Assembly: GCA_017499595.2 (NCBI GenBank)
Contig: CM039008.1
Location: forward strand, 2,480,001 to 2,544,000
Direction: 5' to 3'
Length of the DNA stretch: 64,000 nt
Origin: Psilocybe cubensis
Lineage: Eukaryota
Shown: positions 54,023-56,086 of the stretch, piece by piece
Position numbering within the stretch: position 1 is the stretch's first letter
How the letters are laid out: each line of letters begins with the position of its first letter
Made by a program: the position numbers and the translations under genes
The notes under the pieces: generated by a model
Databases searched by the model: none
What the model was told of the DNA's origin: nothing
The model's input: only the letters and a program-made list of their open reading frames with translations

Positions 54023-56086
54023 ATGCGACTCATCAACACAAAAACGTTCCAAATAGAGGACTTCTGGAGCAACATTCCTGTGTACGCTATCCTTTCGCAC
54101 ACATGGGAAGAAGAAGAGGTTACATTCCAGGAGATGCAGGCCCTCAGCAGATGGATCAAGCGAAAGAAAGGTTTTAAGAAGATCCAAAAAACCTGCGAGC
54201 AGGCTCTAGCCGATGGCTTTACATACGCTTGGGTCGATACGTGCTGCATTGATAAAACCAGCAGCAGCGAGCTATCGGAAGCCATCAACTCGATGTATAA
54301 ATGGTACCAACAAGCTGAGGTTTGCTACGCTTACCTCACGGACGTTTCAGCGAGCGACAATCCATTCAACCAGAAATCACAGTTTCGGGAATGCAGGTGG
54401 TTTACAAGGGGCTGGACGCTACAAGAGTTGATCGCGCCGCTGAGCGTGGTGTTCTACGACAAAGATTGGATCGAAATTGGGACAAAATCCAGTTTGTGCA
54501 AAATCATCACCGAAATTACCAATATCAGCAAGCAGGTCCTACTCGTAAACCATGGCGGCGAAATAAGCATTGCCGCAAGGATGTCATGGGCCTCTAATCG
54601 GAAAACAACGAAAGTGGAAGATATGGCGTATTGCTTACTCGGACTATTTGGGATCAACATGCCTATCTTGTACGGCGAAGGCCAAGACGCCTTTTCTAGG
54701 CTACAACGAGAAATTATTGGGACGTCGGATGACCAGACCATTTTTGCATGGGCAGGAGGCCATGGAGGCACCGGGGTTGCAGGTCTACTAGCCAAATCTC
54801 CTAAAGACTTTGCCCCTTCATCGCATTTATCGCATATCAAGGTAGACACAAACAGGTCTCCTTACAGCATCACCAACGTTGGACTATCGATCGAGCTACC
54901 ACTCCAACCTGTCAGCGGTAACGCCAATCAATACAAAGTTCTGCTCAACTGTTTGAGTGGCGGATCGCTAGTAGGAATATACCTGATCAAAGACAAAGAG
55001 GGACAGTATGTACGCACACGTACTACAGAAACATTCACGGACACCGCCGACAACCTTCAACGATACAAACGCGAGCGCATCTACATTAAAGAACCCGTTC
55101 CATCCCGTTTTGACGTTACACAATGGATGAAACCACGCCGCGACTACGAATTCTTCATCAAGTCAATGCCAAGTGCCCAAGTCCATGGCTTCACTGCGAC
55201 ACAGTTTTATCCTCCACCCGGCACAAATGCCGTGGAGTGGTCCGCACTTCCCAAATCCCAGCATCGTTTGACGATAGGTCATAGTGGCACATCAGGCGGC
55301 ATACTCTTTGAGAGTAAAACCGGTCGATATGAACGCTTTGTCGTCATGCTTGGACTGCACAACTACAATGTATGGTGCGATGTCTACACCAACGTCGGCC
55401 AGTCTGACACACTCGAGGGAATTGCTAAGTCGTACTACAAAGATAACCAGGTCAAGCTTTGGGATAACCTCGACCGTGCCTGCAAGCAACTTACCCTGCA
55501 CGACAAATACGTAGTTTTATCCGCCCGAAAGGGTGTCAAACCAGACAAGCAAGGTGAATTCCAATACACGGTTGATATAACAGTTACCAGCAATCCTCCA
55601 CCCGTTGGTTCCATCGGCAGATCTGGTGGTCTAGAACTGGGGATGTCTAATCCGGCGTATGTTTTTCATGTCATGTTCGACCCAACCTGGGAAGTTACCT
55701 CGCTGCCGGCATTCGAGTCCATTGCATGGCACCGCCAGAAGGACAAGTCTCTGACATTAGCACTAAAAAACAGTGGCATTTCAGGTATCGTTGTTCTTCG
55801 TGATTCGGTCACCCAAGCGGTAGTAGCGATTTTGCTCGGTATCCACAATTACAAACCTTGGTCGGATATTGTGACGACCATCAAAAACGACGAAGGAGTG
55901 GAAGATGAGGCCAAAAACGTCAGAAAGCTGTATTACACCAACGTGCCCGGCAATCTAAACCATAGGCTTTGGGCTTGGGATACGGACTTAGAGAAGTCCG
56001 TCAACAAAAATTTGTCTGTGAGGGTGGTGACGAAAGAAGACGCGAAGGATTCATTTGCGACGAACATTCAAATCACGCGACTTTGA
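54023..56086 (+). CDS. HET-domain protein with two C-terminal fungal fruiting-body lectin (actinoporin-like) domains, 687 aa, intronless
   Basis: MRLINT..YAILSHTW, WVDTCCIDKTSSSELSEAINSMYKWY, WFTRGWTLQELIAP, EDMAYCLLGLF, DQTIFAW; then two repeats LT(I/L)xxxSGxSG...LG(L/I)HNYxxW(C/S)D(V/I)xT...YY. Confidence 0.92.
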   Translation: MRLINTKTFQIEDFWSNIPVYAILSHTWEEEEVTFQEMQALSRWIKRKKGFKKIQKTCEQALADGFTYAWVDTCCIDKTSSSELSEAINSMYKWYQQAEVCYAYLTDVSASDNPFNQKSQFRECRWFTRGWTLQELIAPLSVVFYDKDWIEIGTKSSLCKIITEITNISKQVLLVNHGGEISIAARMSWASNRKTTKVEDMAYCLLGLFGINMPILYGEGQDAFSRLQREIIGTSDDQTIFAWAGGHGGTGVAGLLAKSPKDFAPSSHLSHIKVDTNRSPYSITNVGLSIELPLQPVSGNANQYKVLLNCLSGGSLVGIYLIKDKEGQYVRTRTTETFTDTADNLQRYKRERIYIKEPVPSRFDVTQWMKPRRDYEFFIKSMPSAQVHGFTATQFYPPPGTNAVEWSALPKSQHRLTIGHSGTSGGILFESKTGRYERFVVMLGLHNYNVWCDVYTNVGQSDTLEGIAKSYYKDNQVKLWDNLDRACKQLTLHDKYVVLSARKGVKPDKQGEFQYTVDITVTSNPPPVGSIGRSGGLELGMSNPAYVFHVMFDPTWEVTSLPAFESIAWHRQKDKSLTLALKNSGISGIVVLRDSVTQAVVAILLGIHNYKPWSDIVTTIKNDEGVEDEAKNVRKLYYTNVPGNLNHRLWAWDTDLEKSVNKNLSVRVVTKEDAKDSFATNIQITRL

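Follow-up and report, generated by a model that had tools for sequence, protein, structure and literature searches.

The closest described relative of the protein considered here is the product of the Bh gene (Pa_3_2660) at the het-B locus of Podospora anserina, a single-exon gene cloned and dissected by Clave et al. (2024, PMC10890737). According to that report, BH consists of a heterokaryon incompatibility (HET) domain (residues 1-240), a beta-rich HET-associated domain (HAD, residues ~240-380) and a C-terminal region with the fold of the fruiting-body (FB) lectins, which was identified by Foldseek and termed 'distantly related'. The lectin-fold region sets allele specificity towards BP2, a PII-like protein encoded next to it; the alleles BH1 and BH2 are 69% identical and under balancing selection. 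The same architecture makes up 5-10% of the HET proteins of Sordariales (13 of 132 in Podospora, 4 of 65 in Neurospora), and het genes are only 4 of the 132 Podospora HET genes (PMC10890737). In the model proposed for BH, a C-terminal lectin sensor controls an N-terminal HET executioner. The HET domain alone, when overexpressed, causes cell death, its activation by oligomerisation has been proposed, and it is treated as TIR-like (PMC10890737, PMC12881547). Here we describe a gene of this class from the agaric Psilocybe cubensis. It lies at 54023-56086 of a 64,000-nucleotide stretch of DNA (assembly GCA_017499595.2, contig CM039008.1, positions 2,480,001 to 2,544,000; 'the window' below means this whole stretch), and its predicted product carries two FB-lectin domains in tandem behind HET and HAD. 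A preliminary description of the stretch knew of no characterized example of such a protein and proposed that its lectin part controls HET. That claim to novelty fails because Bh had already been characterized as a HET, HAD and FB-lectin-fold protein, and a Joint Genome Institute (JGI) record is named for both domains; the proposed mechanism is the field's current model for the class and had been put forward for BH (PMC10890737). What is new, judging from the sequence, is the presence of two canonical lectin domains in a member from Agaricales, with the residues that BGL uses for the Thomsen-Friedenreich (TF) antigen kept in both. A literature search for HET-lectin fusions returned only the het-B paper and reviews citing it, none of which describes a tandem or basidiomycete form.

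The domain make-up follows from several independent comparisons, and the coordinates are collected in the Table. Twelve sequencing runs from five studies hold all or part of the stretch, and four of them (three studies) were compared over 52500-57500; their contigs show no joint inside the open reading frame (ORF) in any of the four, so the ORF is taken to be without intron. In the whole protein, Pfam gives HET (PF06985) 48.4 bits (E = 1.7e-12) against a cut-off of 22.5, in line with the HET domain claimed for the N-terminus. The blocks YAILSHTW, WVDTCCID and RGWTLQE are all present, invariant in five of five orthologues and nearly universal among relatives, and the motif positions given in the preliminary description are correct throughout (YAILSHTW with Y21 at 54083, the WTLQE glutamate at 54425-54427, and His-Asn-Tyr at 55358 (H446) and 55844 (H608)). 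The 'usual helical extension' attributed to HET is indeed there, as helices at 159-241, but the separate beta-rich HAD that follows it, at about residues 246-373, had been missed. Residues 250-385 gave no family match in the copy of Pfam used, which lacks PF26640, a family that we take to be DUF8212; PF26640 is found in the precomputed Pfam lists of relatives aligning over 96-100% of residues 1-370. HAD is defined as a beta-rich domain found almost solely behind HET.

The lectin half is equally clear. FB_lectin (PF07367) scores 107.7 bits in the whole protein (E = 6.3e-31, cut-off 25), and when residues 370-535 and 536-687 were scanned as separate pieces each repeat exceeded that cut-off alone, which bears out the tandem arrangement that had been read from the sequence. 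The phmmer search of PDB sequences with the whole protein matched SRL, XCL, BEL and ABL at 1.7e-10 to 1.6e-8, and repeat 2 alone matched PDB lectins at 3.3e-6 to 4.5e-4. The two repeats share 23% identity (E = 4e-10), far beyond chance. A NACHT or NB-ARC NTPase domain was seen neither in Pfam at E up to 1, which gives HET and FB_lectin only, nor in the structural model, so that the protein can rightly be called NOD-less. On inspection the N-terminus has no apparent signal peptide, and it aligns residue for residue with the orthologues.

The predicted structure agrees with this division. An AlphaFold model built from a 150-row alignment of relatives, 23 of them free lectins and some of these partly misplaced over the HET region, has a mean predicted local distance difference test score (pLDDT) of 90.2 and a predicted template modelling score of 0.68, with only residues 532-540, in the linker between the repeats, below 50. 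It is predicted to comprise an alpha/beta HET core with a helical extension to residue ~245 (pLDDT mostly 84-98 over the HET region), HAD strands at 282-355 and lectin domains at 375-522 and 546-686, both of which have the actinoporin-like beta-sandwich of the family, with the same succession of seven strands, a helix-loop-helix and three strands (pLDDT 84-93 for repeat 1). The top Foldseek ranks are nine FB-lectin chains (E = 3e-9 to 3e-8, template modelling score to target 0.77-0.82), followed by actinoporins at 0.40-0.49. In VIA-align, repeat 2 (542/545-685) superposes on XCL (1x99), SRL (2ofc) and ABL (1y2t) with Z scores of 18.7, 18.2 and 18.0, and on XCL, BEL, SRL and ABL with a root-mean-square deviation of 2.0-2.4 A over 133-136 of 141-145 residues (2.4 A over 136 for XCL), while haemolysins and actinoporins reach only Z 8-9.4. 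The aligner gives the best range per chain, and the assignment of repeat 1 rests on its sequence scores and the order of its secondary structure. The non-lectin matches fall on HET residues 15-178. TIR, SEFIR and nucleoside 2-deoxyribosyltransferase chains make up most of them, including SARM1 (Z 6.0), Hydra TRR-2 (5.6), SpbK (5.4), TIR-1 (5.0) and MyD88 (4.8); these matches agree with the 'TIR-like' label used in the literature but are weak by themselves.

Stand-alone FB lectins have ~140 residues, form dimers or tetramers and hold two sugar sites per monomer (PMC4425051). In SRL, the N-acetylglucosamine (GlcNAc) site is formed by Asp77, Ile78 (backbone), Thr80, Arg101 and Tyr112, and His70, Tyr72 and Arg105 are named for the primary site (Peppa et al. 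2015); in BGL, S48K, G49N and H71E each abolish TF-antigen binding, and R103Y abolishes GlcNAc binding (PMC7794217). The corresponding positions were mapped through the canonical free lectin P0029 and the alignment to a profile hidden Markov model (HMM), with SRL Arg101 equated with BGL R103; the mapping is less certain in the helix-loop-helix region, where the alignment has indels. As far as such a mapping goes, the signature of the primary site, which accepts Gal-beta-1,3-N-acetylgalactosamine (GalNAc) or GalNAc, is intact in both repeats, and S421, G422 and H446 in the first and S584, G585 and H608 in the second are invariant in all five orthologues. The preliminary description had both sugar sites retained in both repeats. 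This holds for the Ser-Gly and His of the primary site but not for the GlcNAc site, where the equivalents of Arg and Tyr are absent. The Arg at that position is kept in repeat 2 of three orthologues (P0003-P0005) and in repeat 1 of one of them (P0005). In repeat 2 of the window protein and of P0002, its nearest relative, Leu or Met takes its place; the lineage of the window protein may have lost its secondary site only recently.

Table. Features of the HET-HAD-lectin gene of the window. Positions are those of the window; the last rows before the contig give residue equivalents in the two repeats.
Feature	Position	Strand	Remarks
Whole coding sequence	54023..56086	+	687 codons + stop, standard code, uninterrupted (ORF list, translation)
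HET domain with helical extension, residues 1-245	54023..54757	+	Pfam PF06985, 51.8 bits for residues 1-260
Glu135 codon, Glu of WTLQE	54425..54427	+	E135 in 122 of 124 HET-bearing alignment rows
HAD, beta-rich, residues 246-373	54758..55141	+	Predicted strands 282-355, pLDDT 86-97
FB_lectin repeat 1, residues 374-523	55142..55591	+	Pfam 63.1 bits; PDB lectins 1.7e-10; free-lectin HMM 84.3 bits
Primary-site Ser421-Gly422, repeat 1	55283..55288	+	Aligns to BGL S48/G49; invariant in 5 of 5 orthologues
His446-Asn447-Tyr448, repeat 1	55358..55366	+	H446 aligns to BGL H71
Linker between repeats, residues 524-544	55592..55654	+	1 of 21 positions invariant among 5 orthologues
FB_lectin repeat 2, residues 545-687	55655..56083	+	Pfam 52.1 bits; superposition on XCL/SRL/ABL
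Primary-site Ser584-Gly585, repeat 2	55772..55777	+	Aligns to BGL S48/G49; invariant in 5 of 5 orthologues
His608-Asn609-Tyr610, repeat 2	55844..55852	+	H608 aligns to BGL H71; His and Asn invariant; Tyr replaced by Ser in P0002
Asp / Ile (backbone) / Thr equivalents			Repeat 1: D453/V454/T456; repeat 2: D615/I616/T618
Tyr-Tyr			Repeat 1: Y471-Y472; repeat 2: Y637-Y638
SRL Arg101 equivalent			Repeat 1: N475; repeat 2: L645
SRL Arg105 equivalent			Repeat 1: L479; repeat 2: L649
SRL Tyr112 equivalent			Repeat 1: A486; repeat 2: L656
Contig cover in run X10 (RNA by our guess)	53875..56130	+	From ~150 nucleotides before the ATG to ~45 nucleotides after the stop

The window protein thus shares with BH the order HET, HAD and FB lectin, the single exon, the lack of a NOD and a C-terminal module that diverges faster than HET, and its domain borders fall within ~10 residues of those published for BH1. 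It differs in that BH, an ascomycete protein, has one lectin-fold domain, whereas the agaric protein has two, each recognized by the Pfam FB_lectin profile and each with the primary-site residues intact; moreover, neither an adjacent PII-like partner nor 69%-identical alleles are seen at the window gene. With the stand-alone lectins SRL, XCL, ABL, BEL and BGL (PF07367; PDB 2ofc, 1x99, 1y2t, 3qds) it has the fold in common, as well as their signature of Ser-Gly, His-Asn-Tyr, Trp, Asp and Tyr-Tyr in both repeats; unlike them, it holds two copies in one chain behind HET-HAD, with the GlcNAc-site Arg101 and Tyr112 equivalents replaced. HET-E, HET-D and HET-R of Podospora likewise join an N-terminal HET to a C-terminal recognition module, but they have NACHT and WD40 repeats and no HAD. 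The TIR NADase effectors (SARM1, bacterial ThsB and SpbK, plant TIR) superpose weakly on HET residues 15-178 (Z 4.5-6.0) and have no sequence-level match to it.

Close relatives of the protein are found in several agaric genera. A word-indexed search with the lectin half returned the protein itself and four full-length relatives of 683-691 residues, all with HET and FB_lectin, including those of Psilocybe cyanescens, Gymnopilus dilepis and Agrocybe pediades and another at 74% identity. Between species, identity to the window protein is 72-86% in HET, 53-83% in HAD and 48-74% in the repeats. When 1.84 billion representatives were searched exhaustively, 87 sequences matched at E up to 1e-3; the named ones include Rhodocollybia, Tricholoma matsutake and Stygiomarasmius, together with one ascomycete, Whalleya. 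Twenty of the 87 were scanned with Pfam, namely all 18 of more than 320 residues besides the family's own representative and two tandem-only proteins of 280-300 residues: nine combine HET with FB_lectin, two FB_lectin with a protein kinase and one ankyrin with FB_lectin, and five have FB_lectin alone. Three candidates without FB_lectin (P0067 with WD40/STAND, P0057 with fn3 and P0085 with FG-GAP) were discarded as repeat-driven false positives.

The same lectin family therefore occurs with other signalling or scaffold modules in place of HET, as the kinase and ankyrin fusions show. The two kinase fusions (P0030, 541 residues; P0072, 884 residues) begin with a full-length FB_lectin domain (E = 1.8e-44 and 2.5e-40), so that their lectin is N-terminal, and the tree described below places them with the free lectins. 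In the third fusion (P0016, 530 residues, JGI), FB_lectin lies C-terminal to ankyrin repeats, and the N-terminus weakly matches the GPI inositol-deacylase winged helix; P0016 may be the C-terminal part of a protein resembling the NOD-like receptors (NLRs) that uses the same lectin as sensor.

The scaffold in front of the lectins is far more common. When HET-HAD (residues 1-370) was used as query, all 8000 of 8000 scored candidates were significant. Among the best 120 of these, the precomputed Pfam lists give PF07367 for 33, which include Aspergillus pseudotamarii and the JGI record 'Fungal fruit body lectin/Heterokaryon incompatibility protein (HET)', and an HMM made from 26 free lectins finds the lectin domain in 40. 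The HAD end was recognizable in 55 of the 80 relatives without an HMM match, and 49 of these 55 had tails of 110-260 residues, which were pooled; the pooled tails matched the free-lectin profile with an HHalign probability of 95.9% (E = 6e-9, 63 columns), the sugar motifs being eroded. Taken together, the HMM matches and the pooled-tail match indicate that the HET-HAD clade carries tails derived from FB lectins, ranging from canonical to Bh-like.

In a FastTree phylogeny of lectin domains (122 rows left of 144 after removal of eight near-identical fragments and of rows with <80 filled columns), a branch with Shimodaira-Hasegawa-like support of 98 sets 50 rows, including 44 short lectins and both kinase-fused ones, apart from all HET-linked domains. 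For the five orthologues, the first repeats group together with support of 98 and the second repeats with support of 99. Elsewhere the tree is poorly resolved, and the rows labelled 'free' include some gene fragments.

Variation between strains appears limited in the runs compared, which are a small strain sample. The copy of the gene is at least about 98.5% identical in all four, the listed, best-supported substitutions in the ORF are third-position and synonymous in 18 of 18 cases, and no deeply diverged alleles were seen in these four runs. A Pfam scan of 18 flanking ORFs, each 81-475 residues long, returned nothing PII-like, and a six-frame scan of the 64-kb window with the HET-HAD and lectin HMMs found no second HET or lectin gene.

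By analogy with BH, we consider that the window protein may well be a cytosolic single-chain sensor and executioner of the HET-HAD-lectin class that senses a conserved glycan or glycoconjugate cue, a reading to which we give about an even chance. From the BH model and the effect of HET overexpression, we infer that the lectin module would act as the sensor and HET as the executioner, with ligand-driven clustering between the two. The tandem lectin module would bind its ligand, most likely a glycan or glycoconjugate, either of foreign origin or one that the cytosol does not normally meet. Being bivalent, the module would gather HET domains on a multivalent ligand, and HET, as a TIR-like domain, would in turn set off a regulated death of the hyphal compartment. 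The cue would be a conserved signal of non-self or damage, distinct from allorecognition. A conserved glycan cue is favoured because the lectins are canonical and duplicated, no partner gene was found among the flanking ORFs and no diverged alleles were seen in the four runs, and also because the gene is kept across several agaric genera and the listed strain differences are silent.

A more specific version is that the protein is a functional glycan sensor coupled directly to a TIR-like death domain, in which multivalent glycans, either foreign or exposed to the cytosol from the lumen or cell wall, cluster HET, and that this canonical form is ancestral to the protein-recognizing, motif-eroded het genes of the Bh type. 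We put it forward tentatively and regard it as clearly the less probable of the two; its evolutionary part is consistent with the range of lectin tails, canonical at one end and eroded at the other, that the nearest HET-HAD relatives display.

Several points weigh against a conserved glycan cue. We know of no fungus that makes the TF antigen. The secondary GlcNAc site lacks the Arg and Tyr equivalents, and so two of its four side-chain contacts, in both repeats. The primary-site residues are the most conserved signature of the lectin family and could for that reason be kept for folding instead of binding. The similarity to TIR is weak, since Z scores of 4.3-6.1 on a 687-residue model lie below the level that the tool treats as distinctive. 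Beyond the best-supported differences listed, 91 further ones lie in the 5 kb compared, and the core of repeat 1 does show some allelic variation, since run X5 covers 55248-55462 with two contigs that have 10 and 2 differences. Finally, the only ligand of this architecture that the het-B report defines genetically is a protein, BP2, and not a glycan (PMC10890737).

This last point leads to the best surviving alternative, that the gene is an allorecognition determinant like Bh, in which the lectin-fold module recognizes a polymorphic protein of another strain and HET kills the fusion cell. Allorecognition is the sole function that the het-B report demonstrates for the architecture (PMC10890737); the repeats diverge between species faster than HET, the same gradient that separates BH1 from BH2, and the two X5 contigs over the 215 nucleotides of the repeat 1 core are allelic. 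However, the near-uniformity of the four runs, with silent changes throughout the listed differences, is, small as that sample is, unlike the 69% identity of BH1 and BH2; the flanking ORFs offer no PII-like partner, although small exons may have been missed, and the window no second HET or lectin ORF; and among the Podospora HET genes the het genes are the small minority noted above. We therefore consider this explanation unlikely, if still the strongest of the competitors to a conserved glycan cue.

A chimerolectin toxin directed at fungivores appears somewhat less likely still. Here the repeats would bind O-glycans of the gut or cell surface in nematodes, insects or amoebae that take up hyphal cytoplasm, and carry HET into them as the toxic moiety. 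The agglutinin of Marasmius oreades is a fungal fusion of a lectin with a toxic domain, the TF-antigen site residues are kept in both repeats, and strong conservation would fit a fixed foreign target. Plant fusions of this kind exist as the ricin-type chimerolectins (PMC5486055), and free FB lectins serve in defence, being active against insects and recognizing the TF and Tn antigens, which are animal glycans (PMC10890737, Peppa et al. 2015, PMC7794217). On the other hand, in the published accounts HET is known to act only cell-autonomously, as a death domain of the very fungus that carries it (PMC10890737, PMC12881547), and the HET-HAD scaffold is common to thousands of proteins without a canonical lectin, as the 8000 significant candidates illustrate. 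The well-supported branch that splits the HET-linked domains from the 44 stand-alone lectins further implies that they are not simply recruited toxin lectins. An integrated decoy, in which the repeats mimic the fungus's own defence lectins and an antagonist's lectin-neutralising protein sets off HET by binding them, is very improbable: it draws purely on analogy with the integrated decoys of plant NLRs and the sequence offers nothing to tell a decoy from a working lectin, even though the same fold recognizes a protein in BH (PMC10890737) and a plant protein that binds and neutralises a Fusarium FB lectin has been published (PMC3749967).

HET-domain genes number in the tens to hundreds in fungi, and to our knowledge almost none of them has a known trigger. 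The lectin fold of BH has diverged so far that it cannot be presumed to bind sugar, and genetics has identified a protein as its ligand; the agaric protein and its relatives would offer a direct way to ask whether carbohydrate recognition can control a HET death domain. If a glycan does act as the cue, it would be the first ligand class for HET proteins outside allorecognition and would suggest an origin for the het-B-type genes, and fungi would have in this protein an equivalent of danger sensing by cytosolic lectins, with the executioner in the same chain. If not, the gene is one more member of a large class that has already been described.

The gene appears to be transcribed. One X10 contig of 1652 nucleotides runs unbroken over 54479-56130, and the contigs of X11, which belongs to the same study, lie over 54289-54481 and 54609-55296. 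In the downstream minus-strand gene, X11 skips two segments of 65 and 59 nucleotides, whose ends read CT..AC on the plus strand (GT..AG on the minus strand). Because these spliced joins in the neighbour are missing from the DNA runs X5 and X8, X11 is probably derived from RNA, including its part over the window ORF. The lack of cover over 52834-53835 in both X10 and X11 was not used as evidence.

The downstream neighbour (56267-57062 and beyond, minus strand), a small gene, encodes a membrane-like protein with introns at 56623-56687 and 56967-57025 according to the spliced X11 contig, and its ORF 56497-57033 gives a weak hint of TMEM192 (E = 0.033). Upstream, three adjacent long ORFs lie at 48162-51153 (minus strand); the 166-residue one matches ATG13 (PF10033, E = 2.2e-29), the ORF after it matches the last part of that profile, and the three are probably one intron-split autophagy gene, ATG13. 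Further upstream, a 211-residue ORF at 45410-46045 (minus strand) matches Cwf15/Cwc15, but at 20.9 bits (E = 3.6e-4) it stays below the cut-off of 30.4. Over 52794-53668 the summed contig depth rises 2-3 fold in X5 and X8, with many loose contig ends and short skips, as expected for a dispersed repeat. In a 21-kb contig of X8, the segment 52500-52920 is inverted and lies ~6.3 kb from 53604-57500, which indicates that the upstream side of the gene is rearranged between strains.

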